Virus record (IMG/VR): IMGVR_UViG_3300045988_077255
DNA: 36,751 nucleotides
Strand: one strand, 5' to 3'
Origin: a virus
A program made the translations under genes and the position numbers. The notes beneath the pieces are model-generated. The model was not told where the DNA came from. It saw only the letters and a list, made by a program, of their open reading frames with translations, and did not search any database. Positions 2,409 through 36,621 of this stretch are shown here, one piece after another; the first letter of the stretch is position 1, and the number at the start of each line of letters is the position of its first letter.

Positions 2409-4004
2409 TTACGGATAAATTGCAATCAAATGTCCATTCGAATCAATCTGAAACGTCGGGCTATCACCTTTATCGCCTTTGTCGCCTTTTGCTCCGGTTG
2501 CACCGGTGGCACCTTTTGCACCTGTATCTCCCTTATCTCCTTTAGCTCCGGTTGCACCGGTGGCGCCTTTTGCTGCTATCTGTAACCAATAAGTCGTATT
2601 CGTTGGAATGATACTAGAAGAAGCAGTGTGGCTCTTGATACAGGCATAGGTATTGCCATTGTATGTAACGATATCAATATAAGATGTATCATTCACATAA
2701 GCAGTTCCGGATGCCCATGCATTTTTCAGTCTCATACTGACACCGGTCGAACCTTTTGCTCCGGTATCTCCCTTTGCTCCAGTTGCGCCAGTGTTTCCGG
2801 TTGCTCCTTTTGCTGCAATTTGAGTCCAGTATGTAGTATTTGTCGGAACGATGTTGGAAGAAGCAGTATGACCTTTTGCACAAGCATAAGTACTGCCGTT
2901 GTAAGTCACAATATCAATATACGTCCCATCATTGACATAAGCAGTTCCAGATGCCCATGCGCCTTTCAAACGCATACTCACACCTTTTGCACCTTGTGCC
3001 CCCTGCGGTCCCTGCGCTCCAATCGGTCCTTGCGCACCTGTCTCGCCTTTTGCACCTGTCGCTCCAGTAGCTCCTGTTGCCCCCTTGATATTGCCGGTCT
3101 TCGACCATGCACCAGAGGCTCTTTTATATACATCAAAATTCGATGTATTTAAGAAGAAATCTCCGTCTTTTCCCTGTGATGCAGATGGTGCAGCTGTTCC
3201 GGTCAACCATGTTGCCCCATCTGCTCCTTTTGCACCAGTCGCACCAGTTGCACCCTTGTCACCTTTTGCTCCTGTCGCACCGGTATCGCCTTTTGCTCCT
3301 TTCTCACCTTTTGGTCCTTGTAAGTCAACAACCATCTGAAAACCGGAGATATGTACTTTGTATCCTGCCGGAAGTCCTGCTTTTAACTTAATTCCTTTTC
3401 CATCTGAGTTTTCAGTAAATGTCGTTCCATCCTGTCGTACACCATCAACATATACTTCCAGAGCATTTCTATTCAACGGAAACTGATAATCTGTCCAAGA
3501 AAAAGAAGTTTGCCCCTCTGTAGAGGTAAAAATCTTCTCAAAGCGAATATAGCTTTCTGTACTTCCTGCCGGCCCCTGAACACCTCGTTCACCTTTTGGT
3601 CCCTGTGGTCCAGTCGCACCGGTATCACCTTTGTCACCTTTTACACCCTGAATACCCTGTGGTCCCTGAATACCTTGGTCTCCTTTATCGCCTTTCGGTC
3701 CTTGAATGCCTCGTGCACCAGATAAGTCAACGATATAAGTATAGGCACTTGAATTTTTACAATATAATTTACCGGTATCCACATCATCTACACTCCCGGT
3801 ATCAATCATGACAAAACTTCCTACGCTTACTCCATCTGTAGAATATCCAGCATTCATGGCTGATACACTTTTGTAAATTTTAGCGATTTTAAACGGCTCT
3901 CCCGGGTCACCTTTTAGCCCCTGCTTTCCTTGAGGTCCCTGTGGTCCCTGTGCTCCTTGCGGTCCCTGCGGACCGATTACTTTACCTAAATCAACTGTAC
4001 TCAT
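2409..4004 (-). CDS. Collagen-like tail fibre / receptor-binding protein with two tandem CBM5/12 (ChtBD3)-like modules
   Basis: 531 aa with several G-X-Y tracts. A duplicated ~70-aa unit reads AWASGTAYVND..YIDIVTYNG.TYAC.K.HTASS.I.PTNTTYW.QI, matching the chitin-binding type 3 pattern. Confidence 0.85.
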   Translation of the reverse strand: MSTVDLGKVIGPQGPQGAQGPQGPQGKQGLKGDPGEPFKIAKIYKSVSAMNAGYSTDGVSVGSFVMIDTGSVDDVDTGKLYCKNSSAYTYIVDLSGARGIQGPKGDKGDQGIQGPQGIQGVKGDKGDTGATGPQGPKGERGVQGPAGSTESYIRFEKIFTSTEGQTSFSWTDYQFPLNRNALEVYVDGVRQDGTTFTENSDGKGIKLKAGLPAGYKVHISGFQMVVDLQGPKGEKGAKGDTGATGAKGDKGATGATGAKGADGATWLTGTAAPSASQGKDGDFFLNTSNFDVYKRASGAWSKTGNIKGATGATGATGAKGETGAQGPIGAQGPQGAQGAKGVSMRLKGAWASGTAYVNDGTYIDIVTYNGSTYACAKGHTASSNIVPTNTTYWTQIAAKGATGNTGATGAKGDTGAKGSTGVSMRLKNAWASGTAYVNDTSYIDIVTYNGNTYACIKSHTASSSIIPTNTTYWLQIAAKGATGATGAKGDKGDTGAKGATGATGAKGDKGDKGDSPTFQIDSNGHLIAIYP

Positions 4005-5797: not shown

Positions 5798-6640
5798 TTA
5801 CACTCCTATATATCTGTTTTTGTATCGTACTTCCACGGACTGAGGGTCTAAACCGTTTTCAGACGTATATTCAAGCATGTTATCACCTACTTGCAAGGAG
5901 AAAAATACAGACTGCAGATCAATGTAATCAAATGCATCTGTGCTTACTCCACCTCTTATAATTTCAACTTTCTTCTGTCCAAAAGCAGTATTGATATACA
6001 AAATATCATCCGAAGTCAGTTCCCTCTTAATTCGGATAAATTCTCCTGTAGACAAATTCGTAATCTTAGGATTAACTGCCGGTCCGTGAAAATAAATTTC
6101 AATAGGTGCTTCTGTATGTCCGGAATTAAAGACGTTCTTTTTAGGTTCTCCCCTCTCTTTGAGCTTAAAAGGGAGCGTGAATTTCCACGCCCACCCTTTT
6201 ACCCATGTAGAAATTGCCTCTCCAGTCTGCACAATGTCCTTGAACATTGGATCCATACAGGAAAGTTCTATTTCAAATTCAAGAACATCATAAATATTCT
6301 GACTTGTAAAACGAAAACTTTCTACTTCGTATTCAATTTCTCTTTCCACACCAAGATGATTCACCGTTAAAATTCCGGAAGAAAACGGACTGAAAAAACG
6401 GATTAATTCCTGACGCTTATCGGATTTATCCTCGTTTCCGAGATAATCCGCTGAAATAGCAATCGGTCTTGAAAGAACTTTTTTTCGCTTTAACCGTTCT
6501 CCAATAAAGTTCGAATTTACGCTTTTTTCCAGTTCATAATCTGTTGCTTCAATTCCGGAATATTCTGTTACACCAAAATCTGGCTCATCTAGTACAAGCG
6601 TCTCTTCTCCTTTCGAAAAGCTAAACACTATCCTATTCAA
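5798..6640 (-). CDS. Distal tail protein (Sipho_tail family, Dit-like)
   Basis: 280 aa, immediately downstream of the TMP with a 4-nt overlap. This is the typical position and size. Confidence 0.7.
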   Translation of the reverse strand: MNRIVFSFSKGEETLVLDEPDFGVTEYSGIEATDYELEKSVNSNFIGERLKRKKVLSRPIAISADYLGNEDKSDKRQELIRFFSPFSSGILTVNHLGVEREIEYEVESFRFTSQNIYDVLEFEIELSCMDPMFKDIVQTGEAISTWVKGWAWKFTLPFKLKERGEPKKNVFNSGHTEAPIEIYFHGPAVNPKITNLSTGEFIRIKRELTSDDILYINTAFGQKKVEIIRGGVSTDAFDYIDLQSVFFSLQVGDNMLEYTSENGLDPQSVEVRYKNRYIGV

Positions 6641-13962: not shown

Positions 13963-14357
13963 TCCTCATCCACTCCCATGTATAAAATACCACTTGACAT
14001 TAGATAAGTACTTGCAATCTGATATAAACGACTCTCAAACTCTTCCTCTGTCTGTTCTGTCTGATAGCTGACGGAATATCCATCGTTGTTTTCCGATACA
14101 ATATTTCCTCTTACCTTTCTCTTTTGCATTGCCTCAGCCATTTCACAGATTGCATACTTTGCATTTTGTTCCCAGTCTTTTTCTGACCAGTCACATGCAA
14201 TTCTTCCAAAGCTGAAATGTTCCAGACGTTTTTCTGCTTTCAATTCCAAAGAAAGCCAGGCACTTTCTGGCACCTGACTTCCTCCAAACCTTTCAATATA
14301 AAAACTATAATCTACTTTCATAATCTCATCAACTAGCGGTTTTTGCTGTATGTACAT
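13959..14357 (-). CDS. Head-tail connector / DNA packaging protein
   Basis: 132 aa. The start may instead be ATG 14321 (MKVDYSF), just past the capsid stop. Confidence 0.5.
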   Translation of the reverse strand: MYIQQKPLVDEIMKVDYSFYIERFGGSQVPESAWLSLELKAEKRLEHFSFGRIACDWSEKDWEQNAKYAICEMAEAMQKRKVRGNIVSENNDGYSVSYQTEQTEEEFESRLYQIASTYLMSSGILYMGVDEE

Positions 14358-15192
14358 AAATACCGTCTACTTTGTTGTCATAAGTTTCTGCAATACCGAC
14401 AGTTCTATAGTTAAACTGCCATGCATCTGCGTTCATGTTCTGTTCCGGTGTGAAAATTTTGGAAACAGTGTGCTTCTGATACTGGATAACTGCCTGTTTG
14501 TCAATCACAATAAAGTTCATCGCAAGTGCACCGGTATCTTTTGTAAATCCACCTGCTCCGGAAGCAGTCAGTTTTACTTTATTGAAGAACCTTCCCGATG
14601 GTACTTTTACGATTCCTGCAAATCCCTCCAGTGCTTTTTTGGAGGCAGTTGTATCTAAGTCATCAATCATTCCATAAAGTGCCGGATTAATGAACAGGTA
14701 ACAAGTTGCAAGATTTGCCTCTGCATTTTCAATGTGATTTCTTGCTTCACGAAGTGCTGCAAGTCCTGCCTTTCCATCTGCAATATCTGCACTTACTGTT
14801 GCTACATTCTTTGTCTGTGCATAAGCAGACAGACGATAAGCATCCAGCTCCGGGACACCCTGTGTTCTAAGAAATTCACTGGATAATTTACCAAATGCGA
14901 TACTCGCTGTATCGATATTGTCCATTGCATCTACAACAAACTTTCTACCACGGTCATAAGTACATTTCTTAGTTTCATAGTCTAATGTAATATCTCCTGC
15001 CGCATATCCGTTTGTTTTGGAATAATCTGCAAGACCCTGCATAGTCATTTTCGGAATCAAAATTTCGTTTGCATTTGCACCCTCTTTTACCAAGTTATTT
15101 GCTCCATCCAGCACAGCTGTTAAAGAGGATAACTTGTAGACCTCGTCCAAAAGGGTTGAGTACTGTTTTCTTAATTCAATTGCGTTTGGCAT
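14329..15192 (-). CDS. Major capsid protein
   Basis: 287 aa, directly after the scaffold gene. Confidence 0.8.
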   Translation of the reverse strand: MPNAIELRKQYSTLLDEVYKLSSLTAVLDGANNLVKEGANANEILIPKMTMQGLADYSKTNGYAAGDITLDYETKKCTYDRGRKFVVDAMDNIDTASIAFGKLSSEFLRTQGVPELDAYRLSAYAQTKNVATVSADIADGKAGLAALREARNHIENAEANLATCYLFINPALYGMIDDLDTTASKKALEGFAGIVKVPSGRFFNKVKLTASGAGGFTKDTGALAMNFIVIDKQAVIQYQKHTVSKIFTPEQNMNADAWQFNYRTVGIAETYDNKVDGIYVHTAKTAS

Positions 15193-15203
15193 TCAACTTC
15201 TCC

Positions 15204-15764
15204 TTATTTGTTTTCCGGAAGTCCCATAGCCGCACGAAGTGCAGACACTTCATCTGCTCCGCCGCTGCCACCATTTCCGGTTGAACCTACTGGATTCTTA
15301 AACGGTTCATCTGAGCCGAAGAGATAAGCATCAGACTCTTTTACCGCTCCAATCGCAGCCTCAATGTCGGCAGACTGGTTTTTCGATGCTTTGAGTGTTT
15401 CCATGTCAAGCATTGCCATAACTGCCTTTTCATTTCTACCTCCGGCTTTCTTAATTGCGGCACTTAATTCTCCGGAAAACTGACGTTCTGCTTCTTTCTG
15501 GGCATATTCTGCATCTTTTGCCTGCAAATCATCCTGAAGCTTTGCAATTTGACTCTGCAAGTCTTTTACGTCCACTTCGTCAAATTCTTTCAGCTTTTCA
15601 TTTACAGTATCAAGAGAAGATTTATACTCATCTCTCTTTGTAACTGCATTATCGTACTCTGCTTTGGTACGATAATTTTCTTTCCATGCTTTTTCAAAGT
15701 CTGCTTTTTTCTCTGCCGGAAGTTCAAGTCCAAATTCTTTAAGAATCTCATAGATATTTTTCAT
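15204..15764 (-). CDS. Scaffolding protein (Phage_GP20-like)
   Basis: 186 aa, highly charged coiled coil (KAEYDNAVTKRDEYKSSLDTVNEKLKEF), upstream of the capsid gene. Confidence 0.8.
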   Translation of the reverse strand: MKNIYEILKEFGLELPAEKKADFEKAWKENYRTKAEYDNAVTKRDEYKSSLDTVNEKLKEFDEVDVKDLQSQIAKLQDDLQAKDAEYAQKEAERQFSGELSAAIKKAGGRNEKAVMAMLDMETLKASKNQSADIEAAIGAVKESDAYLFGSDEPFKNPVGSTGNGGSGGADEVSALRAAMGLPENK

Positions 15765-15850
15765 GCTACATTCCTCCTGAAATCATTTATTGACCGCTCT
15801 TTCAGCGGTATGGGATATATCCGGTTCTTTAATGCCTGCCGAAAAAAGGC

Positions 15851-15878
15851 ATAAAAATAAGACGCCATCAATGCGTCT
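15851..15878 (-). terminator. Rho-independent terminator closing the moron cassette
   Basis: Minus strand reads AGACGC-AUUGAUG-GCGUCU followed by UAUUUUUAU. Confidence 0.6.
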
Positions 15879-15891
15879 TTGTTAATCTTTT

Positions 15892-16104
15892 TTATAAGTC
15901 ACTTCCATATCTGTTTCTGCTACAAATGTTGTTGTCCCCTTGTACGTTCTTACCGAATATCTTTAAGTTTTTCAGCGGAACTTTGACACTATCTTTACAA
16001 ACTATTGGATTGCCAGATATCGTTTCAAAACTATACTTTTTCATTTTATATAGCTTTTCTGGTTTCATTCCTATAAAATTTGTATCATCTACCATTTCAG
16101 GCAT
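15892..16104 (-). CDS. Short ORF, possible truncated paralogue of 16383..16937
   Basis: 70 aa. It shares the N-terminal motif FIG.K.E.LY.M.K with the 184-aa ORF and ends just before the terminator. Confidence 0.4.
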   Translation of the reverse strand: MPEMVDDTNFIGMKPEKLYKMKKYSFETISGNPIVCKDSVKVPLKNLKIFGKNVQGDNNICSRNRYGSDL

Positions 16105-16379
16105 TGTACTTCGACACCTCTTTCATCTGCCTCTTCTGGAATAATTGTCATAATTCCTTTCATCGTCGGAAGATAATTCGTATCTGCTCTGGCAGTAATT
16201 ACTTGTGCACATTCTGCCGGAATCAATAAACAATCATTTTTATTTGATGTCTCCTCAAGTGCCACATAAATATCGCCTTGAGTAAAATTCTTAACCAAGT
16301 ATTCAATTCCAGCAACATCAAATTCCAATTTTATCGGAGTATTCGCACTTGTTGCCTGTCTTTTAAAAATACACTTCAT
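16089..16379 (-). CDS. Hypothetical moron protein
   Basis: 96 aa, closely spaced after 16383..16937 (3-nt gap) and overlapping the start of 15892..16104 by 16 nt. Confidence 0.5.
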   Translation of the reverse strand: MKCIFKRQATSANTPIKLEFDVAGIEYLVKNFTQGDIYVALEETSNKNDCLLIPAECAQVITARADTNYLPTMKGIMTIIPEEADERGVEVQCLKW

Positions 16380-16382
16380 TTT

Positions 16383-16937
16383 TTACTCCTTATAAGGTTC
16401 CCATTTTTTTCTTGTTTTTCCCACTGACAACATAACACCTTTAAAAGTCGCCTCGTATTTTCCTGCTAATACACTTCCGGCTGTATTTTCTGTTACAAAA
16501 AGTCTAACTTTAACATTCGTAGCCTCTTTCGGAATAGATAAAGTAATTGCTTTTTGTTTTTCTGTAGATATCAACGTCTTATAACGATACTTGCCATTTT
16601 GCATATATGCGGCTCCAACGACTGCACTCTCATTTGGTACATTGCTTTTGTAGTCATCATATTGAAGAGTTACTGTTTTTCCAATAACTCTTTTCAATGG
16701 TATTGAATATACTACATTTACAAATTTTTTACTAGAAGCTGTTGCATTTGCCCCTATTTCTGCTTTAAGTGTAATGGAATATCCCTGTTTATCTACTTTT
16801 TTTTCTTTAATACCAAGTTCTGTTTCGGAACTTTTATATGCATTAAATAACTGTTTGCTTTTCTTTGACATCTGATATAACGTTTCTTTTTTAGTCCCAA
16901 TAAACCTCATATCACCGCTTATCATATCTCTTTGCAC
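16383..16937 (-). CDS. Hypothetical moron protein, beta-rich (possible carbohydrate-binding/decoration module)
   Basis: 184 aa with a GTG start behind GAGGAG. Inserted between the MuF and scaffold genes. Confidence 0.6.
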   Translation of the reverse strand: MQRDMISGDMRFIGTKKETLYQMSKKSKQLFNAYKSSETELGIKEKKVDKQGYSITLKAEIGANATASSKKFVNVVYSIPLKRVIGKTVTLQYDDYKSNVPNESAVVGAAYMQNGKYRYKTLISTEKQKAITLSIPKEATNVKVRLFVTENTAGSVLAGKYEATFKGVMLSVGKTRKKWEPYKE

Positions 16938-17017
16938 TAAAACACTCCTCTCATGGAGTCAGTGCTTACAAGGTTAAGTTTTACCCCCCCCCGCTCAAAA
17001 CTATTCTTTCTATTCAT
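16937..17017 (-). CDS. 26-codon leader ORF containing a G9 tract, with its stop overlapping the downstream GTG start
   Basis: AAAGGAG-N6-ATG, reading MNRKNSFERGGVKLNLVSTDSMRGVF. Its TAG shares its G with the GTG start of 16383..16937 (sequence TAGTG). Confidence 0.35.
   Translation of the reverse strand: MNRKNSFERGGVKLNLVSTDSMRGVF
16984..16992. repeat. Homopolymeric C9 (G9 on the coding strand)
   Basis: Nine consecutive C in an otherwise AT-rich genome, located inside the leader ORF. Confidence 0.95.
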
Positions 17018-17030
17018 CAAATTCTCCTTT

Positions 17031-17073
17031 AAAAATAGTATAAAAATACCACCAGTCGCTCAACTGATGGTAT
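17031..17073 (-). terminator. Rho-independent terminator after the MuF / zinc-ribbon genes
   Basis: Minus strand reads AUACCAUCAGU-UGAGCG-ACUGGUGGUAU (11 bp, one G.U) followed by UUUUAUACUAUUUUU. Confidence 0.7.
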
Positions 17074-17083
17074 TAATCAATAT

Positions 17084-17233
17084 TCAATCTTTTTTGCAAC
17101 TATCGCAATGAAAACTTTTTGTTGTTTTAAAATCTCCAACTGCAATCATTACACCTTTTTTACAACATGGACAGATAACTTTTTCGCCATTTCTTAATTT
17201 TTCCATAAATTCATTAAATTCATAAGGATTCAT
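17084..17233 (-). CDS. Small zinc-ribbon protein (49 aa), not in the ORF track
   Basis: GGAGGTG-N5-ATG, reading MNPYEFNEFMEKLRNGEKVICPCCKKGVMIAVGDFKTTKSFHCDSCKKD. Paralogue of 17277..17444. Confidence 0.55.
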   Translation of the reverse strand: MNPYEFNEFMEKLRNGEKVICPCCKKGVMIAVGDFKTTKSFHCDSCKKD

Positions 17234-17276
17234 CTTGTCACCTCCATGGTAACTCTGGATATAATTTCTTTACTTT

Positions 17277-17444
17277 TTAATCAACAATTAGCTGACTGCC
17301 ACACTTTTCACATTGAAAAGTATTTGTTTTTTTACAATCTCCTATTGCTATCATCTTTCCTTTGCACTTTTTACATAATACACATTTCCCCTCACGCAAA
17401 AGTTTCAAGCGTTCATGGGTTGGCATAAGCAAAGTATCATTCAT
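17277..17444 (-). CDS. Small zinc-ribbon protein (55 aa), not in the ORF track
   Basis: GGGAG-N7-ATG, 4 nt after the MuF stop. Reads MNDTLLMPTHERLKLLREGKCVLCKKCKGKMIAIGDCKKTNTFQCEKCGSQLIVD. Confidence 0.6.
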   Translation of the reverse strand: MNDTLLMPTHERLKLLREGKCVLCKKCKGKMIAIGDCKKTNTFQCEKCGSQLIVD

Positions 17445-17448
17445 AAAA

Positions 17449-19074
17449 TCACTCCCATTTCAAATATGGATACATGTCATCTATATATTTCATTGTATCC
17501 TTAATCGTCTCCTTTGTCAATTTCTCACCTCTATGTCTGCATTCATTCAAAAAACATTCTAATTCTTGGTTTTTAGTATTTGGCTTATTGATTTTAGCAT
17601 GTGTTGCTTCGTGTATCACAGTAAGAGCCGCATCTTTCACTTTCTTTACATTATCAGCGTATACATTAATTGTCCCTGATTCAAATGTCCCTGCTCGTCC
17701 TGGTTCAACATCCACCCCATAATATATATTTACAGGAATATCATTATCTTGTATATATGCTAATAATTCTCGTCCTATTTCAGATTTATTCATTTCTTTC
17801 ATAATGTTATGAGGCTTTATAATATCCCTCCCCTTTTGCGGACTTCTTCCATCAAAAGTAGTAAAATTCTTTTCATTATCTTTATAACGTCTTGGTGCAA
17901 TCTGAACAGTTCTTCTACCAGCCATCCTCCCCAGCCCATCCATATACACTCGTTCCATCTGCTCCGGAAGTTTCATTTTCTTTGAAAAGTCTTTATACTG
18001 ACTTAGTGTATTAAGATATCTCGCCTGAGCTGCTATCACGGTATCCAAGTCTGCATTTCCCTGTTTCAGGTTCTTAATATTTGCTCTCTGTGCCCGCATG
18101 GTCGTTTCCATCTGCCGTTGTGCCTGTGATGCCTGGTATGCATTGTAGCTTTTGCCTTTGTACTCATGCTCTTCCTGCTCTTTTGCTTCCAGCTCTTCTA
18201 ACTGCTCGTCTGTATAAGTCCTTGCAGAAAAACCATCCACAAAAGCATAGTAACTATGCTTACAATTCCATCCACATAAACCTCTTCCCTCTCCAAGTTC
18301 GCACACTCTTACAAGGTCATCGTAGCTGTAGACTTTACCGCCCCACCAGTGTTCTGGTCGGTGTCCACCATGCCATGTCACTTCGTATTTATCCGTTTTC
18401 AGGTCTTTTGCAACCATTTCGTTTATTTTACTACTCAACTGTGAAACACCTGTCATAATGGCTCGTCTTGCCGCCACAGGTGCACGGTTTTTCCATCCGG
18501 ATGCATAGTCCACTGTTTGCAGTCCAGAAGCTGTCATTTCTTTTACGACTCGCCTCAAGACAGTATTATAATCAAATGAACCTGTTACAATATCCATACA
18601 GGCAGAATCTAAATACTTCTGGTAATACGTTGCCAGTGGTGTGAATACTTTCTTACCACGCATTTGCACGGTAAATCCCATTGACTGCGTAAGATTCTTT
18701 ATCTCTCCCTGTGTCTGCTTTGAAATTGCATCTGCCCATTTTCTAATTGTCTCATTCTCTTCGAGCGGAATAAAATTACCGTTTATCTGCTCATAAGCAT
18801 CTTTATTTCTGACATATTCCCAGTCACAGACTTTATCATACAAAGCCCAAATTTCCGGATAGGAAGCATTTAAAAGATTTTTCAATTCCTTTTCTATGAA
18901 CTCTGTACTATTTCCAAGCAGCAGGAGTTTATTTATCTGATAATCTGCCGTGCTGGTAATTTCACCAGTTTTTTTGATTCTCCTTACAATATCCGCATAA
19001 ATTCGGTCTTGCAAATCATAAAAAAGTTTTTCCGTCCGAAGTGGCAGTGTTCCTTTTTCGTCTGGTGTCATCAT
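17449..19074 (-). CDS. Minor head protein (SPP1 gp7 / Mu F family) with C-terminal HExxH metallopeptidase-like extension
   Basis: 541 aa. MuF-type motifs: VTWHGGHRPEHWWGGKVY and GLCGWNCKHSYYAF. The C-terminal ~130 aa contain VIHEATHAK. Confidence 0.85.
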   Translation of the reverse strand: MMTPDEKGTLPLRTEKLFYDLQDRIYADIVRRIKKTGEITSTADYQINKLLLLGNSTEFIEKELKNLLNASYPEIWALYDKVCDWEYVRNKDAYEQINGNFIPLEENETIRKWADAISKQTQGEIKNLTQSMGFTVQMRGKKVFTPLATYYQKYLDSACMDIVTGSFDYNTVLRRVVKEMTASGLQTVDYASGWKNRAPVAARRAIMTGVSQLSSKINEMVAKDLKTDKYEVTWHGGHRPEHWWGGKVYSYDDLVRVCELGEGRGLCGWNCKHSYYAFVDGFSARTYTDEQLEELEAKEQEEHEYKGKSYNAYQASQAQRQMETTMRAQRANIKNLKQGNADLDTVIAAQARYLNTLSQYKDFSKKMKLPEQMERVYMDGLGRMAGRRTVQIAPRRYKDNEKNFTTFDGRSPQKGRDIIKPHNIMKEMNKSEIGRELLAYIQDNDIPVNIYYGVDVEPGRAGTFESGTINVYADNVKKVKDAALTVIHEATHAKINKPNTKNQELECFLNECRHRGEKLTKETIKDTMKYIDDMYPYLKWE

Positions 19075-19080
19075 AAATGC

Positions 19081-20439
19081 TTACTCCTCAATCGGGTCAG
19101 GATCTACACTTTCATCAATAATCTTCTTTGCGGCTTCTTCCTCTGTTTCACCGTACCACTTTGCACGATACTCTACTAAGGTCATCGCACCCATGTTTAC
19201 ATCCTGTCTATCCTGCTGCCGTTCTGTCTCTTCACTAGTTAAAATGGAATCACTGAATTCACAGAAGAACTCATAACCGGAAGTGTACATAGAATTATAA
19301 AATGCCAGTCCTGCCGCAAAATCTTCCAGACAGTCCCGAAGTTTTCCCTGTATTGCTTTTACACGATTATACTTTCTCGCCTTTGATGACTTGATTTCTT
19401 CCGCTGTCTTTTCAACATTCTGTACGTTTGAGAGGTCACCATAGCTTAAGCCTACAATAAACTCAATTTCTCGCTTATATTCTTCTAAGCCACGTTTAAA
19501 CGCTTCGTCACGCATTTCCGGAGAGTACTCACGGAACAGTTCTTTGTCTTTTCCATCCTCAAGATTTAAGCCACGATACAATCGTTTGCTTAGTCGTGGC
19601 AGATTAAAACGTCCACCTTTTTGCTTTAGTGCTCTCTCATCTACGTGAATGGCACGTTCTCCGGAATTGTATTCCCAGTCAAGTCTTGCCGCTTGAATAT
19701 CCGCTTTCATAATCCGCTCTTTCGCAGATTCATATACCGATACACCACAATGACTACCATCTACATTATTACGAAGCGGATTCCTGTAATATCCAAAATC
19801 CATTTGCTCCATTCCTGGATAACTGACCGGACCAGCTTCTATGTTCTGCCACTCTCCCACTTCTTCAAGAGAACATTCCTGTCCAATGTCAGCCTGTGTC
19901 TGCGAATGATAACACCTGTTTGAAATCGTAAGCACTCCATTTGCAATGGTATGCCGTTCTACTCTCGTATAATAATCAATCTCACCGATACGTTTTACCG
20001 TAAGAAACGCAACATCAGTTGGTCTGCCATTGTCTCCAAACTGAATCGGTATGAACTTATCCGCAGTAATAAACTCTGCCAATCCTCCCGGCAATGGTTT
20101 CAAACAAAAAGAGCCCAGTGCAAGACCATCTTGCAAGTGCTCATTTAAAAGTGTAAGCTGTTTTTTATATATCTTGTCCAATGCCGGTACAGAAATAGAT
20201 GTTTCCATCTCTGCTAATACGGTATCTGCAAATTCACGACAGATACCTTGCTCTATCTTAAGAGACTGCACATCGCTACTAGTCCAGTCTGCCGCTCCGT
20301 CGAGCATTAACTTCCATTCGTTGATGGCATCAATCATTCCTTGCGATAATGCCACATCCGTACCAAGTATACTTTTTAATTGCGTATAGCCAAACATTCT
20401 CGCTATCCTCCTCAGAAAATTCTTAATTCCATCAAACAT
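19081..20439 (-). CDS. Portal protein (SPP1 gp6-like)
   Basis: 452 aa, between TerL and the MuF gene, with an acidic C-terminus. Confidence 0.85.
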   Translation of the reverse strand: MFDGIKNFLRRIARMFGYTQLKSILGTDVALSQGMIDAINEWKLMLDGAADWTSSDVQSLKIEQGICREFADTVLAEMETSISVPALDKIYKKQLTLLNEHLQDGLALGSFCLKPLPGGLAEFITADKFIPIQFGDNGRPTDVAFLTVKRIGEIDYYTRVERHTIANGVLTISNRCYHSQTQADIGQECSLEEVGEWQNIEAGPVSYPGMEQMDFGYYRNPLRNNVDGSHCGVSVYESAKERIMKADIQAARLDWEYNSGERAIHVDERALKQKGGRFNLPRLSKRLYRGLNLEDGKDKELFREYSPEMRDEAFKRGLEEYKREIEFIVGLSYGDLSNVQNVEKTAEEIKSSKARKYNRVKAIQGKLRDCLEDFAAGLAFYNSMYTSGYEFFCEFSDSILTSEETERQQDRQDVNMGAMTLVEYRAKWYGETEEEAAKKIIDESVDPDPIEE

Positions 20440-20442
20440 TTT

Positions 20443-21759
20443 CTATTCCTCATCAATCAGATACTTCATATCTCGTTCAATCGTATATTCAAACGCATCC
20501 AAGCTGTCAATGTCTGTACTTCCATCGTCAAGCCGTTCATCTACTAAGGATTCTTTATCATAAACCGCATCACAAAAAGCTGTCTCCAAGCTCTCGCAAT
20601 CTTCTGTTAAGAAGAACCGTCCTGCTCCCATTAACATCTGTGTACAGCGGATACGGTCAATAATTGCTTTTTTCTTTGCTGGCTTTACAGATATCCAGGG
20701 ATATCTTGTCTCTACATTATTCCGAATGGATGCACCTAAAACTGATTCTGCATTGTCGAAAAATACTGTTTCTACATTGCAGTACTGCATGTATTCTCCT
20801 CGCCCATCCGTTACTGCATATTTATCAATAACTTCCTGTACAAATTCCAGAAAAAGCTCTGTCAGTTTCTTTGAGTCAATCCCTTCCGGAAAATCGTCTA
20901 CCATGATGCGCCTGCTCATCACACCAATAACTTCTCTGTAATTATCTGTGTATCCTCTTGCTACAAAAGCATGACCGGATTTATTTCCACCAAAGTCCAG
21001 ACCAATTTCAAGCGACACAATATCTGTTTTCTTAAACTCTCTGCGCTCCGTATTGCCCTCTATTTCGTCTTTTATCTCACAGTAGAACAACTCTGACTTA
21101 TCTGCAAAACGCTTGTAAATTGCCCCATCTGCACGCTTCCACTTGCCAAGTATGAGCCTTTCATACCACACCGTACCCTCGTACTCTTTGCAGAGCTGTT
21201 CTACATACTCAGGCGGTAAAAACGGATTATCAAAGATAGTGTACTTCTGCAAATAGATATCCAGTTCTTCGTTATCAATGAACTTTTTCAGCCAGTGTGT
21301 TGGCTGTTCTGGGTTGCACGCTCCATCAAAACACGAATACGGCTTGTCCAGTCGTGATTTAAGCATTTGGAACACATCTTGATTCCACTTTGCAATCTCA
21401 TCACCATAACAATACTTAATGCTGGAACCCTGTATTTTTGCGACCTGGCTGACTTTCTCCGCTCCAAGACAATACACGTCCTCACCGCAGATTCTTGCGA
21501 TATTCATACTGTTGATAGTTCCAATCAGTTTATCCGTGTACAGCTCTCTCATTGGCTGTAATACATTTCGTTCGATTGAAGCCTTTGACACTCCAAGAAT
21601 CGCATTTAATCCTGGCTTTCCTTTTCTTTCTCGGATCCGGAACGGAACGATATAAGCAGTATCTACAAAAGACTTTCCGGAACGAACTGCTCCGGATTTA
21701 ATGTTCCAGCGATGCGTGGCATGTAAAATATACTCATTCTGCTTCTTGCTTAACTGCAT
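20443..21759 (-). CDS. terL: Terminase large subunit
   Basis: 438 aa. Walker A motif GAVRSGKS near the N-terminus and a nuclease-type acidic C-terminal half. Confidence 0.9.
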   Translation of the reverse strand: MQLSKKQNEYILHATHRWNIKSGAVRSGKSFVDTAYIVPFRIRERKGKPGLNAILGVSKASIERNVLQPMRELYTDKLIGTINSMNIARICGEDVYCLGAEKVSQVAKIQGSSIKYCYGDEIAKWNQDVFQMLKSRLDKPYSCFDGACNPEQPTHWLKKFIDNEELDIYLQKYTIFDNPFLPPEYVEQLCKEYEGTVWYERLILGKWKRADGAIYKRFADKSELFYCEIKDEIEGNTERREFKKTDIVSLEIGLDFGGNKSGHAFVARGYTDNYREVIGVMSRRIMVDDFPEGIDSKKLTELFLEFVQEVIDKYAVTDGRGEYMQYCNVETVFFDNAESVLGASIRNNVETRYPWISVKPAKKKAIIDRIRCTQMLMGAGRFFLTEDCESLETAFCDAVYDKESLVDERLDDGSTDIDSLDAFEYTIERDMKYLIDEE

Positions 21760-22177
21760 TATCCCGCATCTCCTTTAGTATCGCATCCAGTCTATCTAAC
21801 GCTTCATCCGTCTCATTTTCACCAGTTATCTGTTGTTTCCTTGCCCTCTTTAACTCAATATCTTCGTCTGGTACTTCATACTGTCCTGCAAACCGTGCTA
21901 CAGCCTCATAAGCCTTTACATCACCCTTTAGTGCTTTCTTTATCATTGCCATATTGATTGCACTTTCAAGAGTGCTGTCTATGCCAAGACTTTCCAGAAA
22001 TGGAGTTAATTCCTCGTTCTCAATTTTTGCACTAAGCAGCAGGTTTAAAGTTTTTCTAAAATTCGCTCTTTTTCTCCTCGCCTCACCGGATGCTTCGCCA
22101 GCTCTTTTCGCTAATTCTCGGCGTTCGTTCGGAGTTCGATTATTATTTGCATCTTTTATGTTTTCATAGTTTGCCAT
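21734..22177 (-). CDS. terS: Terminase small subunit
   Basis: Track ORF is 21734..22273. ATG at 22177 (MANYENIKD) lies behind GGAAGGTGGGTGG. Motif NERRELAKRAGEASGEARRKR. It overlaps terL. Confidence 0.7.
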   Translation of the reverse strand: MANYENIKDANNNRTPNERRELAKRAGEASGEARRKRANFRKTLNLLLSAKIENEELTPFLESLGIDSTLESAINMAMIKKALKGDVKAYEAVARFAGQYEVPDEDIELKRARKQQITGENETDEALDRLDAILKEMRDNAVKQEAE

Positions 22178-22209
22178 CCACCCACCTTCCTGTCTTGCTA
22201 AATTTATGT

Positions 22210-22241
22210 ATAAAAATAGCACCCAGTAAATACTGGATGCT
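22210..22241 (-). terminator. Strong rho-independent terminator between the early region and terS
   Basis: Minus strand reads AGCAUCCAGU-AUUU-ACUGGGUGCU (10 bp, one G.U) followed by AUUUUUAU. Confidence 0.75.
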
Positions 22242-22338
22242 ATATGGATAAAATGTAAAGAAAAGAGAAACATGTAAGTTTAGCACTTACCAGCTCTTGT
22301 CCATTACCCGAACAAGTGGGCACACCGTCACGTGTGAG

Positions 22339-22412
22339 CAACAGCGGAAGGAATCGAACCCCCGACCTCTTGCAAGGCATTTGCAAGCGCTCTACCACTG
22401 AGCTACGCTTTG
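22339..22412 (-). tRNA. Aberrant tRNA-like gene (Ala-tRNA-like body, non-canonical anticodon arm)
   Basis: Arms read CAAAGCG-TA-GCTC-AGTGGTA-GAGC-G-CTTGC-AAATGCCTT-GCAAG-AGGTC-GGGGG-TTCGATT-CCTTC-CGCTGTT-G. The D and T arms are canonical. The anticodon loop is 9 nt (or a 7-bp stem with a 5-nt loop). The acceptor stem pairs at only 5 of 7 positions. Confidence 0.5.
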
Positions 22413-22601
22413 ATGCGCCTGTTGGCAATTCAACAGGCTGTGACTACATAATACATAACATTTTAGAGGATACCTATGGAAATCAAAAACCAATGACCGT
22501 AAATAGGCTAGGTAATGAAACTTTGTTTGCTCTCTGCCTTTCAAACCCATTTACACTATATCATAAGGTGAATGTCTCATTCTATTCCATCTTTTAACTT
22601 T

Positions 22602-23253: not shown

Positions 23254-23282
23254 ATTATACTACGTATTAATACGTATGTCAA
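23254..23282 (-). promoter_or_regulatory. Consensus sigma-70 promoter of hicAB with a palindromic operator in the spacer
   Basis: Minus strand reads TTGACA-N17-TATAAT. The spacer holds the perfect 16-bp palindrome TACGTATTAATACGTA (23261..23276). Confidence 0.75.
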
Positions 23283-32370: not shown

Positions 32371-32399
32371 AGTATATTACGATTTAATCGTAATGTCAA
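32371..32399 (-). promoter_or_regulatory. Early (lytic) promoter with a palindromic operator filling the spacer
   Basis: Minus strand reads TTGACA-TTACGATTAAATCGTAA-TATACT. The 17-bp spacer is a perfect palindrome (32377..32393). Confidence 0.75.
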
Positions 32400-32479: not shown

Positions 32480-32938
32480 ATGAATAATCTTGGCAATAAA
32501 AAAATTATGTCAAAAAATATTCTCTATTATATGGATAAACACCAAAAAACTAGAAATGAAATGTGTGAAGCTCTAGGTGTTAAATATACTACTTTCACTG
32601 ATTGGGTTAAGGGTAATTCTTATCCTAGAATTGACAAAATAGAACTCATGGCAAATTATTTCGGAATTTCAAAAGCTGACCTAGTAGAGGAACATTCACA
32701 ACTTGAAACTATCTCTATTCAGAAAAACAGCTATGAAAATTCCTTGATCAACGAAGCCTCTAAATTGAATCAAAAAGGTAAAGTAAAACTTTTGAACACC
32801 GTTCAAGAAATGACTTGCAGCCCTTTGTATAATGATAATTATTTGCAAGCAGTCGCAGCTCACGAGCGTACCGACATTGAAGTAACTGACGAAATGAAAA
32901 AGCATGATGACGATATCATGGATGATGACGACTTCTGA
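32480..32938 (+). CDS. CI-like XRE-family repressor
   Basis: Track ORF is 32429..32938. ATG at 32480 lies behind AGAGAGGTGATAAA. HTH reads TRNEMCEALGVKYTTFTDWVKGNSYPRIDKIELMANYFGISKADLV. Confidence 0.8.
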   Translation: MNNLGNKKIMSKNILYYMDKHQKTRNEMCEALGVKYTTFTDWVKGNSYPRIDKIELMANYFGISKADLVEEHSQLETISIQKNSYENSLINEASKLNQKGKVKLLNTVQEMTCSPLYNDNYLQAVAAHERTDIEVTDEMKKHDDDIMDDDDF

Positions 32939-33413
32939 TTTGGCAGGTGATTTTTTGAACTATGAAGAAATGCTGATAGAATCGGATAATGAAAATTTGA
33001 TTATAAAGGAAAAGCCATTGTGTTCCAGTGATGGGCGAATTAAAGGAAATAAAATAGCCATTCGGCACACAATTAAAACTCAAACAGAAAAATCATGTGT
33101 CCTCGCAGAAGAACTCGGACACTACTACACAACTTCCGGAAACATCTTAGACCAGACAGACGTATCGAACAGGAAACAGGAATACCGTGCACGGCTCTAT
33201 GGATTCAATCTCAAAATTGGACTTATGGGACTCGTCAGAGCATTTGAGCATGGATGCCGGTCCGCATCAGACATAGCGGAATATCTTGATGTGACGGAAG
33301 AATATTTGAAAGAAGCAGTTGACTGCTACCGGAGCAAGTACGGTGTGTATGCGACTGTGGATAATTATGCGGTATATTTCACTCCTGCTTTGGGTGTGTT
33401 GAAGATAAAGTGA
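32904..33413 (+). CDS. ImmA/IrrE-like (DUF955) metallopeptidase-domain protein
   Basis: CVLAEELGHYYT...RKQEYRARLYGFN follows the ImmA pattern, although the first His of HExxH is replaced by Glu. The start is uncertain (32904, TTG 32955 or ATG 32970). Confidence 0.6.
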   Translation: MMTISWMMTTSDLAGDFLNYEEMLIESDNENLIIKEKPLCSSDGRIKGNKIAIRHTIKTQTEKSCVLAEELGHYYTTSGNILDQTDVSNRKQEYRARLYGFNLKIGLMGLVRAFEHGCRSASDIAEYLDVTEEYLKEAVDCYRSKYGVYATVDNYAVYFTPALGVLKIK

Positions 33414-33465: not shown

Positions 33466-33915
33466 ATGCATGACATTATGAAAAGAATGAAAACTAGACG
33501 TGAAGAATTAAATATGTCTTATCAAACTCTTTCTGAAAAAGTAGGTATTAGTAAATCTACTCTTCAAAGATATGAAACAGGATATATAAAAAATATGCCT
33601 GTTGATAAATTAGAAGAAATTGCAAACGCTCTTGAAATTTCTCCCCTATATCTAATGGGATGGGAAGAAAAAGAAATTTCTCAAATGTCTAGAGTAAAAG
33701 AAAGAATTTTCGGTGCGGTCACAATCATGAGTGAAAAGGATGCCGAAAAAATTTGGGAATTAATTCAAGCTACTTTTGTTTTAGGCAACGCAGAGGAAGT
33801 TCCAGCCGAACCAGAAGAAATTGAAACATTGAATGCTTATCAAAACGGAAATCCCGAATATCAACCACGCTACACTCATGAAGAAATGTTAAGAGAACTT
33901 GGCTTAGAGAAGTAA
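33466..33915 (+). CDS. Second XRE-family HTH regulator
   Basis: 149 aa, reading MSYQTLSEKVGISKSTLQRYETGYIKNMPVDKLEEIANALEISPLYLMGW. Confidence 0.75.
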   Translation: MHDIMKRMKTRREELNMSYQTLSEKVGISKSTLQRYETGYIKNMPVDKLEEIANALEISPLYLMGWEEKEISQMSRVKERIFGAVTIMSEKDAEKIWELIQATFVLGNAEEVPAEPEEIETLNAYQNGNPEYQPRYTHEEMLRELGLEK

Positions 33916-35356: not shown

Positions 35357-35490
35357 CATACACAAGTAAATATCCAGAGATGATACATCTCCTATTAACA
35401 AAATTATTGTATCATCTCCGGAGCAGTCACGCAAGCAGAACATCTGTTCCAAGCTGGCTGTTATTTTTATACCCAAAAAGGAGTGATAAC

Positions 35491-36621
35491 ATGGCAACAG
35501 CACGAAAACTTGTATCAGGCTCTTGGCGATGTCAGGTATACAGTCACACGGAAGAAATTATTCAACCAGATGGCTCCGTTAAACAGAAACGTTTTTACAA
35601 ATCGTTTACCTGTGACGTACCTGGTCCAAAAGGCAAGCGAATGGCAGAGCGGATGGCTGCCGAATGGGCTTCTGAAAAGGAGCATAAGAAAAATATCTTA
35701 AACTGCACGATTGGTGAAGCGATTGAGATGTATATTAACTCAAAAGATGGTATCTTAAGCCCCTCTACAATAGCCGGATACAAAAGGATGCAAAAAAATG
35801 GATTTAAACATATCATGAATACTTATCTTACAAGTGTTGATAAGGAATACCTGCAAGAGGCAGTAAACCGTGAAGCCAAGCGAAAGAGCCTCAAAAGACC
35901 AACAGAAACTATTTCACCAAAGACCGTAAAAAATGAATATGGCTTAATCAGTGCAGCTTTAAATGCTTTCTGCCAAGGAATTGATACCAATGTAAAACTT
36001 CCTACCGTTCCGGTATTAATTAAAGATTTACAGACTCCTGATGCAATCTTTGCTGTATTCGAGGGCACAGACATCGAACTGCCAGTGTTACTTGCTATGT
36101 GGCTTAGTTTCTCAGTGTCAGAAATTCGTGGTCTTACAAAATCAAAATCTATCTCTAAGGACGGAAATTATATATCAATCACGGAAACAGTTGTAAAAGT
36201 GGATAATGACGATATTAGAAAGAAAGAAGCAAAAAATAATACCAGAATCCGCAGACACAGGATTCCGGAATATATAAAAAGCTTAATTGAAAAAGTACCT
36301 GGCGATGTGCTTGTACCATATTCCTATAACACCCTCTATAAGCGTTTCCAGTACTTATTAGAAGAGTCCGATATGCCACACATGACATTTCACGACCTCA
36401 GACACATAAATGCCTCTGTCATGGCACAGCTTCGTGTACCGGATAAATATGCCCAGGAACGTGGTGGCTGGAAAACAGACCAGATAATGAAAAAAGTATA
36501 CACTCATACCTTTTCAGATGAACGAATTGCAGTGGATAATGTTATGGATAATTTCTTTGAAAACATTGTTCAGAATCTTTCGAATTGTATGAATTGTTTA
36601 GACAAGCCCTCTCATGAATAA
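35491..36621 (+). CDS. int: Tyrosine integrase
   Basis: Track ORF is 35380..36621. ATG at 35491 lies behind AAAGGAGTGATAAC. Catalytic residues: R in SEIRGL, HDLRH, and Y in KKVYTHT. Confidence 0.9.
   Translation: MATARKLVSGSWRCQVYSHTEEIIQPDGSVKQKRFYKSFTCDVPGPKGKRMAERMAAEWASEKEHKKNILNCTIGEAIEMYINSKDGILSPSTIAGYKRMQKNGFKHIMNTYLTSVDKEYLQEAVNREAKRKSLKRPTETISPKTVKNEYGLISAALNAFCQGIDTNVKLPTVPVLIKDLQTPDAIFAVFEGTDIELPVLLAMWLSFSVSEIRGLTKSKSISKDGNYISITETVVKVDNDDIRKKEAKNNTRIRRHRIPEYIKSLIEKVPGDVLVPYSYNTLYKRFQYLLEESDMPHMTFHDLRHINASVMAQLRVPDKYAQERGGWKTDQIMKKVYTHTFSDERIAVDNVMDNFFENIVQNLSNCMNCLDKPSHE

Follow-up and report, generated by a model that had tools for sequence, protein, structure and literature searches.

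A zincin-like C-terminal domain on a MuF-superfamily head protein, with a zinc-ribbon partner and an embedded promoter, forms a candidate toxin-immunity locus in a temperate Blautia phage

The locus and its features

The virus record IMGVR_UViG_3300045988_077255 of IMG/VR (36,751 nucleotides (nt); this whole stretch is the window analysed here, and coordinates refer to it unless a related locus is named) encodes a 541-amino-acid (aa) phage head protein with a zincin-like C-terminal domain (CTD), followed by two mini open reading frames (ORFs) that each encode a small zinc ribbon (ZnR1 and ZnR2) and by an intrinsic terminator. An original prediction, made by a model from the letters alone, had proposed these genes as a head protein with a toxin-like peptidase domain and candidate immunity or partner proteins. 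The three ORFs were recovered on the minus strand at 17449-19074, 17277-17444 and 17084-17233, and the motifs that the prediction had quoted from the 541-aa protein (VTWHGGHRPEHWWGGKVY, GLCGWNCKHSYYAF and VIHEATHAKINKPNTKNQELE) were all found in it. The features considered below are as follows; related loci and proteins compared with the window carry L- and P-numbers, respectively.

17449-19074, minus strand: gene for the 541-aa MuF2-zincin protein
17926-19074, minus strand: MuF2-type minor capsid/head-morphogenesis domain, aa 1-383 (PF06152, phrog_581)
17449-17925, minus strand: swappable C-terminal cassette, a short linker plus the zincin-like domain, aa 384-541 and stop codon (folded part aa 394-541)
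17599-17613, minus strand: HEATH (H488-E489-x-x-H492), predicted catalytic and zinc-binding motif
17533-17565, minus strand: E504, C507 and E511 (invariant) and H514 (near-invariant)
17492-17520, minus strand: predicted sigma-70-type promoter TTGACA-17-TACAAT, inside the CTD coding sequence and about 45 nt upstream of ZnR1
17277-17444, minus strand: mini-ORF1 (ZnR1, 55 aa), a subfamily-A zinc ribbon and candidate immunity protein
17084-17233, minus strand: mini-ORF2 (ZnR2, 49 aa), a paralogous zinc ribbon nearest subfamily B and candidate orphan immunity gene
17036-17074, minus strand: intrinsic terminator in the middle of the head-gene operon, 13-bp stem (17045-17074) plus T run

A MuF2 head domain carries a zincin-like C-terminal domain

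A Pfam scan matched residues 2-363 of the 541-aa protein to PF06152 (Phage_min_cap2) with an E-value of 2e-89 (300 bits versus a cut-off of 26.3), and the minor head protein family phrog_581 was matched with an E-value of 1e-94. PF06152 is the "MuF2" family of the MuF superfamily according to Jamet et al. 2017 (PMC5576092). The description of the protein as a MuF/gp7 head protein is therefore correct for the superfamily but not for the family, as there was no match to PF04233, the family of Mu F itself. Sequence conservation among relatives stops sharply after the motif YMDGLGR at aa 383, a recombination junction, and the C-terminal extension beyond this point is about 150-158 aa long with its fold at aa 394-541, rather than the approximately 130 aa proposed originally. 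By analogy with SPP1 gp7, the MuF2 domain is expected to act as a trafficking module that places the 541-aa protein in the capsid.

Modelled confidently by AlphaFold2 with 13 homologues (pLDDT 93.5, pTM 0.89), aa 394-541 form a hairpin at the N-terminus, a pair of helices, a three-stranded sheet and then two long helices (helices 39-50, 86-102 and 108-122 and strands 55-59, 69-72 and 75-79 in model numbering). The HExxH motif lies on helix 86-102, and E504 and E511 (E111 and E118 of the model) lie on the following helix, 108-122. This arrangement is of the gluzincin type, in which a Glu on the helix after HExxH serves as third zinc ligand, here E504 by prediction. The combination of a three-stranded sheet, an HExxH helix and a Glu helix is the zincin core (Iyer et al. 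2017, PMC5512222), and the top Foldseek matches of the model were all zincins, namely the minigluzincins 4jiu and 4qhj in the PDB and M48, IrrE-N and SprT-like proteins in BFVD. H488, E489, H492, E504, C507 and E511 were unchanged across the 13 sequences, down to 27% identity, and the HExxH residues and downstream Glu that had been singled out in the original prediction (H488, E489, H492 and E504) were unchanged across 79 representatives, down to about 16% identity. Because the model contains a zincin core, the top folds are exclusively zincins, and the HExxH and Glu residues are invariant, the CTD as modelled is a divergent, compact zincin-like metallopeptidase domain with predicted catalysis. 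YbeY ranked third among the fold matches, and some zincin-fold proteins, YbeY among them, are nucleases.

The only curated family with a recurrent signal is PF20573 (DUF6782, putative metallopeptidase), which Pfam matched below threshold in the window CTD (E-value 0.003, 17.1-17.6 bits versus a threshold of 27), in 10 of the 13 CTD family members (E-value < 0.01; best 7e-6, about 26 bits) and in 15 of the 79 representatives, the alignment falling around HExxH at profile positions ~20-102 of 241. This indicates, at the level of sequence profiles, that the CTD is remotely related to DUF6782 and not a member of it. Scanned against Pfam at E <= 1, the CTD gave no match to the Tox-MPTase1-5, HopH1 or ALF metallopeptidase toxin profiles, and none was seen among the 13 or the 79 relatives; a PDB sequence search with the CTD profile returned only a spurious match to eIF2B (E-value 0.5), and NCBIfam, PADLOC and PHROGs gave no useful match for the CTD alone. 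A literature search found no paper mentioning DUF6782.

ZnR1 is the partner of the zincin-like domain

Both mini-ORFs have their own Shine-Dalgarno sequence, as originally described: GGGAG at 17452-17456 for ZnR1, overlapping the last CTD codons, and GGAGGTG at 17239-17245 for ZnR2. The AlphaFold2 model of ZnR1 (pLDDT 88) begins with a helix, behind which two CxxC knuckles sit on a three-stranded antiparallel sheet; on this model ZnR1 is a zinc ribbon. The predicted CxxC...CxxC ribbon is also borne out by 114 ZnR homologues, in which the four Cys residues (C24, C27, C45 and C48), one Gly and one Phe are invariant. Searching with a ZnR profile gave 204 homologues, almost all of them 55-65 aa in length. 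The nearest folds, those of ribosomal, Csl4 and RNA-polymerase zinc ribbons, all fell short of significance; Pfam gave weak transposase and TFIIB ribbon matches (for ZnR2, 25.1 versus 25.4 bits for PF12760), NCBIfam, PADLOC and PHROGs returned nothing useful for either ZnR, and no curated family was reached. The mini-ORFs had been called unannotated, but both exact proteins are in NCBI as hypothetical proteins (MFR5278807.1 and MFR5278806.1, from a Blautia sp. metagenome-assembled genome).

To follow the pair across relatives, we compared 16 diverged lineages, with CTD protein identities below 90% in every pair. A ZnR gene is directly downstream of the CTD in 16/16 of these lineages and in about 80 IMG/VR loci, encoding proteins of about 55-70 aa and starting 4-15 nt past the CTD stop codon or overlapping it. 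Lack of conservation of the mini-ORFs in related phages, which would have spoken against the original prediction, is thus not what is seen for ZnR1. The homologues fall into two subfamilies that follow different CTDs. Subfamily A (..PPHERLKLLRxGEKVLCKKC..NQLIxN), which includes ZnR1, follows CTDs of type HEATHAKINKPNTKNQELEC; subfamily B (..ERIEKMRNGEKIKCPRC..FSAVGDPKTTKVFRCDxC..GMxLT) follows CTDs of type HEATHRKLGxxGTFxEEVEC. Pairwise identities of CTDs and ZnRs are correlated (Mantel r 0.89, 0/5000 permutations), and because the N-terminal carriers are shuffled while CTD and ZnR identities co-vary, this comparison of sequences shows the CTD and ZnR travelling and diverging as one unit.

The two partners are also found joined. 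L027-L030, four contigs of IMG/VR that come from different samples, have GGA in place of the CTD stop codon TGA (~6433-6441). The resulting in-frame MuF1-CTD-GLF-ZnR fusion is 529 aa long, and its gene retains both the internal promoter and the start codon of the ZnR. In L122, the CTD ends a VgrG-like protein, and behind it lies a 75-aa ORF in which the first ZnR knuckle alone ("L.GEKV.CP.CG") is preserved. Both mini-ORFs had been put forward as candidate partner or immunity proteins; sequence comparison supports ZnR1 alone as the cognate partner of the CTD, ZnR2 being a truncated, variably decayed orphan (see below).

A conserved predicted promoter is embedded in the CTD coding sequence

The sigma-70-type sequence at 17492-17520, from which transcription is predicted to start near 17485, is the best sigma-70 match within 15000-22500, and sites with <=1 mismatch to the sigma-70 consensus number three in the whole window, versus 0.47 expected. 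A perfect 12/12 match, TTGACA-17-TATAAT, is present at the homologous position in L001, L002, L005, L007, L114, L116, L119, L120 and about 70 IMG/VR loci, and the match is perfect or one-off in 15/16 lineages. Each related locus of about 12 kb has exactly one perfect promoter match, which is mostly in the CTD (elsewhere in L009/L010 and L117/L118).

Codon usage under the hexamers was compared across the same 16 lineages. The Leu and Thr codons under the -35 hexamer are TTG and ACA, each in 15/16, and 13/15 have ATA for the Ile under the -10 hexamer. Conserved Leu, Thr and Ile columns elsewhere are less uniform, with the commonest codon making up a fraction of only 0.29-0.71, and the codons of the catalytic His and Glu residues vary synonymously. 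Because the codons under the hexamers are almost fixed while other conserved columns vary synonymously, selection acts on the DNA sequence and not on the protein alone.

The strong terminator noted originally is a hairpin with a 13-bp stem at 17045-17074 and a T run (folding free energy -16.7 kcal/mol, z -4.3), and 0/200 shuffled sequences were as stable. Hairpins that resemble terminators are also present behind the ZnR gene of L001 and of L007, and in L005 one follows a further 64-aa ORF. Because an embedded promoter and a terminator bracket them, ZnR1 and ZnR2 are predicted to form a self-contained transcription unit nested in the late operon.

In the other two near-consensus promoters of the window, at 23254-23282 and 32371-32399 (minus strand), the 17-nt spacer is a palindrome (TACGTATTAATACGTAG and TTACGATTAAATCGTAA, respectively). 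By their sequence they look like operator-containing promoters, the former upstream of the late/packaging genes and the latter beside the lysogeny genes.

The CTD is exchanged between carriers and is dispensable

An IMG/VR scan with the N-terminal 390 aa gave the following relatives of the carrier.

N-terminus 96-100% identical to the window: same zincin CTD
N-terminus 95% identical (L092, L094): PF14424 BURPS668_1122 toxin-deaminase (E-value 2.5e-19) and a 118-aa ORF
N-terminus 95% identical (L093): another CTD and an 86-aa ORF
N-terminus 72% identical (L097-L099): short MuF of 387 aa, without extension
More distant N-termini: four or more additional types of CTD, each followed by a small ORF of its own

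The zincin CTD is thus not a structural part conserved throughout the clade, the finding that would have told against the original prediction, since N-termini 95% identical to that of the window carry a deaminase or another CTD, and those 72% identical carry none. The closest cultured relative, Ruminococcus phage RG-TP1, has the short form (397 aa) and no CTD. In addition, P0246 and P0255, which belong to the 90% cluster of the window protein, have in-frame deletions that leave proteins of 473 aa from which the zincin core is gone and in which the MuF2 part is fused straight to ZnR1; in P0246, found on contigs of up to 36 kb, the sequence ...GRDI runs directly into the start of ZnR1, which is kept. 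Because there are short-MuF relatives and the natural zincin-core deletion variant P0246, the CTD is, judged from these sequences, dispensable for the phage.

The same CTD is in turn found on several carriers. A first profile search (alignment A1) was contaminated by the MuF motif "PPMHPNCRCS" present in three seeds, which brought in about 200 unrelated MuF toxins; only A1 matches covering the CTD were used, and the profile was rebuilt (A9) for an exhaustive search of 1.84 billion representatives, which found 340 CTD clusters at 50% identity (E <= 1e-3). The N-terminal domain of the 79 long CTD representatives was PF06152 in 30, PF04233 in 28, PF25310 in 12 and a VgrG-like spike in one. Examples of the zincin CTD on PF04233 MuF1 proteins are L014, L015, L082 and L083, and in L007 the CTD is a separate gene after the MuF gene. 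The VgrG-like protein, the only non-MuF delivery example among the 79 representatives, is encoded by L122 (4552-8484 of a 995-kb bacterial contig), where a 1079-aa protein encoded behind a DUF4280 PAAR-like gene ends in the zincin CTD; Phage_base_V scores above its cut-off in this spike and Phage_GPD just below, and Ala replaces the conserved Cys of the CTD. Variable toxins on one carrier together with one toxin on several carriers is the defining pattern of polymorphic toxins, and the comparison of these predicted proteins displays both halves of it. In L005 (4170-6700), the PF06152 gene and the CTD are separate ORFs with an HNH/NUMOD homing-endonuclease gene between them, and CTD, promoter and ZnR are intact.

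With tblastn, the CTD had no match among 50,697 deposited phage genomes, and a scan of a genome collection with closer CTD sequences found only three Clostridia genomes.

ZnR2 and other copies of the zinc ribbon lie apart from a cognate CTD

ZnR1 and ZnR2 are 48% identical over 40 aa (BLASTP E-value 2e-10), in agreement with their description as paralogues. ZnR2 is 58-68% identical to subfamily-B proteins, which pair with HEATHRKLG-type CTDs. Its C-terminus in the window is truncated at a six-A run (17090-17095), and 53-aa variants end in ..CKKRLNID; the 49-aa allele is the common one. Across phages 96-100% identical in MuF, ZnR2 is intact (window), shorter by 3 aa (L090), frameshifted (L091), truncated and replaced (L096) or absent (L089). 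From this pattern we regard ZnR2 as an orphan of the second subfamily that has decayed to varying degrees. Polymorphic toxin loci typically have such immunity genes, left over or collected, behind the cassette now in place. A second candidate of this kind is found in L089 (5340-5696), where ZnR1 is followed by a 118-aa ORF without known family that is the same as the companion of the deaminase CTD in L092/L094 (5352-5708), making it a candidate for an orphaned immunity gene against the deaminase.

Zinc ribbons are also found on elements other than phages. L117 (2943-3278) and L118 (787-1122) encode a 111-aa tandem B+A zinc-ribbon protein on a non-phage element with integrase, sigma-70 r4 and HTH genes, with no MuF or CTD gene nearby. 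The chromosomal remnant L001, beside an integrase, retains only the MuF tail, the CTD and the ZnR. One protein of the ZnR2 cluster, P0274 (656 aa), was set aside as an unrelated enzyme grouped there by a clustering artefact.

A model for capsid delivery of the zincin and immunity by ZnR1

On balance, we consider it probable, with moderate confidence, that a temperate Blautia siphophage here carries a polymorphic toxin locus of the MuF family, with a capsid-delivered zincin and with ZnR1 as an immunity protein that has its own promoter. According to this model, the MuF2 domain would put the protein in the capsid at the portal, as is established for SPP1 gp7 (summarised in PMC5576092 and PMC5512222), and the 541-aa protein would enter the next host cell together with the DNA, where the zincin would cleave one or more cytoplasmic host proteins. 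ZnR1 would be a specific inhibitor that binds and blocks the zincin; it would be made with the toxin from the late operon and also constitutively from a strong promoter within the final 70 nt of the toxin gene, the latter transcript stopping at the 17045-17074 hairpin. Because ZnR1 has its own promoter and a terminator, a lysogen would make antidote without toxin and would be protected from superinfecting particles, from leaky expression and from toxin made on induction. ZnR2 would share the transcript of ZnR1 as an immunity gene of the sister subfamily that was left behind or picked up. Packaging, ejection, proteolysis, toxicity, inhibition by ZnR1 and promoter activity in lysogens are the steps that we infer. 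The analysis supports the toxin/immunity interpretation of the original prediction, in which "toxin" and "immunity" are designations reached by comparative genomics.

Several observations weigh against this model. The matches to zincin folds are weak (TM 0.38-0.48, 14-19% identity, E-values 0.003-0.2; for solved zincins E >= 0.03), and every PF20573 score is under the gathering threshold. Adjacent genes are expected to co-diverge from linkage alone, 55 aa is small for an immunity protein, and the CTD-ZnR and MuF-ZnR fusions are also compatible with ZnR as a cofactor and not an inhibitor. Finally, the promoter is a consensus match whose activity is predicted from sequence, the -10 hexamer of the window is TACAAT (11/12), and L121 is without the promoter motif.

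An alternative is a zincin that serves as a host-takeover or anti-defence effector, for instance by cleaving a defence or regulatory protein of the host to the benefit of infection, with ZnR1 as a safety catch for the producer cell or a packaging chaperone that would hold the protease inactive while particles assemble, and not as superinfection immunity. Such a role has been proposed for moderately toxic MuF effectors such as peptidases (PMC5576092 and PMC5512222), the linkage, co-divergence and fusions of CTD and ZnR fit a chaperone or safety catch as well as they fit immunity, and the CTD is dispensable, like accessory anti-defence genes. However, a safety catch required only late needs no consensus promoter and terminator of its own held at synonymous sites, and such a role leaves unexplained the CTD-less ZnR on a non-phage element, the tandem fusion of two specificities and the orphan ZnR2. 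The autonomous promoter and the CTD-less orphan and tandem copies, as predicted from sequence, favour immunity over a safety catch, and we consider the anti-defence alternative unlikely.

A role for the zincin as an auto-processing or maturation peptidase that trims MuF or head proteins, in the procapsid or after ejection, is more improbable still. Such a role was discussed for virion-associated zincins by Iyer et al. 2017 (PMC5512222), with phage P1 DdrB and other polyvalent virion proteins as cases, and no separate prohead protease was identified among the window proteins; yet near-identical phages work with a deaminase, another CTD or none, the zincin-core deletion variant persists, the same zincin domain ends a VgrG-like spike in a bacterial chromosome, and there is no cargo domain downstream of the zincin to release. 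We give very little credence to the view that the ZnRs are independent small moron genes (e.g., nucleic-acid-binding regulators) with no tie to the CTD, or to that of the CTD as a structural extension without catalysis. In favour of such a view, zinc ribbons in general bind nucleic acids and proteins, the fold matches are only to ribosomal and RNA-polymerase ribbons alongside the weak transposase and TFIIB matches in Pfam, and the interval between MuF and scaffold is a variable moron island; but CTD and ZnR co-occur in 16/16 lineages across four N-terminal carriers, their subfamilies match, the pair is kept in remnants and in the VgrG-like locus, and the catalytic zincin residues are all invariant over 79 distant representatives.

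The model of a delivered zincin with ZnR1 as its antidote can be extended, tentatively, to the ecology of these phages. It is possible, though we would stop short of calling it probable, that the capsid-injected zincin is a kin-discrimination or lysogeny-enforcing weapon among phages of gut Clostridia, with the ZnR unit as the antidote expressed by lysogens, and that mobile elements accumulate orphan and tandem ZnRs as mutual protection. If so, cells that carry a matching ZnR or express it quickly would survive injection and others would be arrested or killed, and the ZnR of about 55 aa would be a new minimal class of specific zincin-protease inhibitor.

Relation to known systems and significance

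A MuF protein with a variable toxin domain and a small downstream gene, as invoked in the original prediction, is a known architecture, described by Zhang et al. 2012 (PMC3482391) and Jamet et al. 2017 (PMC5576092). Like MuF polymorphic toxins, the window protein has a MuF-superfamily N-terminus encoded just after the portal, a variable C-terminal effector and a small downstream ORF in a temperate Firmicute phage, and its CTD is swapped among close relatives and common to another delivery system. Unlike the known MuF toxins, its CTD matches no curated toxin family and only reaches DUF6782 below threshold. The survey of Jamet et al. would have scored the window CTD as a "C-terminal extension, unknown domain", and some of the proteins in its "20% metallopeptidase" class may belong to the CTD family described here. 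The Tox-MPTase1-5 and HopH1 entries in the table of Zhang et al. have no listed immunity proteins, and the ZnR partner family, its two co-varying subfamilies and the toxin-embedded promoter are not mentioned in the available passages of PMC3482391 and PMC5576092. The details that appear to be new are the zincin CTD family, the ZnR partner family with two specificity classes, the orphan and tandem copies and the promoter inside the toxin gene.

In size and plan (~110-150 aa, a three-stranded sheet, an HExxH helix and a Glu helix), the CTD is like the minigluzincins (proabylysin 4jiu and selecase 4qhj), M48, the IrrE/ImmA N-domain and SprT/Wss1-like proteins. It differs from these minimal zincins in its own invariant E-x2-C-x3-E-x2-H motif and N-terminal beta-hairpin, and in being a fused, delivered module and not an autonomous enzyme. 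For gene order, the nearest likeness is to nuclease colicins, whose immunity gene is directly downstream of the toxin gene and is read from a constitutive promoter inside the toxin coding sequence, giving antidote without toxin. The present locus likewise has a candidate antidote gene directly downstream and a promoter within the toxin coding sequence, but the proteins are different, delivery is by the phage capsid, the host group is another one, and the promoter here is predicted only.

MuF toxins are a predicted and barely tested route by which temperate phages may deliver proteins with their DNA, and this locus offers a clean test case: a common gut prophage, a compact effector with catalytic residues that can be mutated, a 55-aa candidate antidote and two natural specificity classes. 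The conserved internal promoter predicts that antidote is made without toxin in lysogens. If the model is true, two new protein families would follow from this locus: a toxin domain with about 340 clusters at 50% identity, and an immunity protein that would be a very small proteinaceous inhibitor of zincins. Fragments of toxin genes would then be retained beside orphan antidotes because the fragments carry the promoter.

Genome context and additional observations

The window is an almost complete temperate phage genome, with integrase, HTH_3 repressor and M78 peptidase genes. The gene order along the minus strand is terminases, portal, the 541-aa gene, the two small ORFs, the terminator, three further ORFs, and scaffold and head genes. 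The neighbouring and other genes are listed here.

35380-36621: integrase
33466-33915: HTH_3 repressor
32904-33413: ImmA/IrrE-type M78 peptidase
21734-22273, minus strand: small terminase
20443-21759, minus strand: large terminase
19081-20439, minus strand: portal, directly upstream of the 541-aa gene
16383-16937 (184 aa), 16089-16379 (96 aa) and 15892-16104 (70 aa), minus strand: three ORFs between terminator and scaffold
15204-15764, minus strand: scaffold
14329-15192, minus strand: major head protein
387-1154: amidase endolysin

Proteins identical to the 541-, 55- and 49-aa products are on record from a Blautia sp. metagenome-assembled genome and a Caudoviricetes third-party annotation record. 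Because the exact window proteins are carried by about 900-1000 contigs, the longest of 1.8 Mb (Blautia, as a prophage), this is a very common human-gut prophage with Blautia as its host.

The 184-, 96- and 70-aa ORFs had no matches in Pfam, PHROGs, NCBIfam or PADLOC; the products of the 184-aa and 70-aa ORFs have in common the N-terminal motif FIG(T/M)K.E.LY.M.K. The near-identical phages L089 and L096 have other genes in the interval corresponding to 15892-16937, and RG-TP1 has five other small genes there. Because these phages hold different genes between MuF and scaffold, the interval is, from this comparison, a hypervariable moron island. Just downstream of the terminator, a run of nine G (16984-16992) lies within a 26-codon ORF (ATG at 17017, with a good Shine-Dalgarno sequence), and the tract has six or seven G in the near-identical L010, L011, L090 and L091; it could be a phase-variable or error-prone tract. 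Fusion of the 26-codon ORF to the 184-aa ORF by a change in tract length was considered and rejected, since no such change joins them. Finally, the 531-aa product of 2409-4004 (minus strand), with collagen triple-helix repeats and CBM_5_12 carbohydrate-binding modules, is probably a tail fibre or receptor-binding protein.

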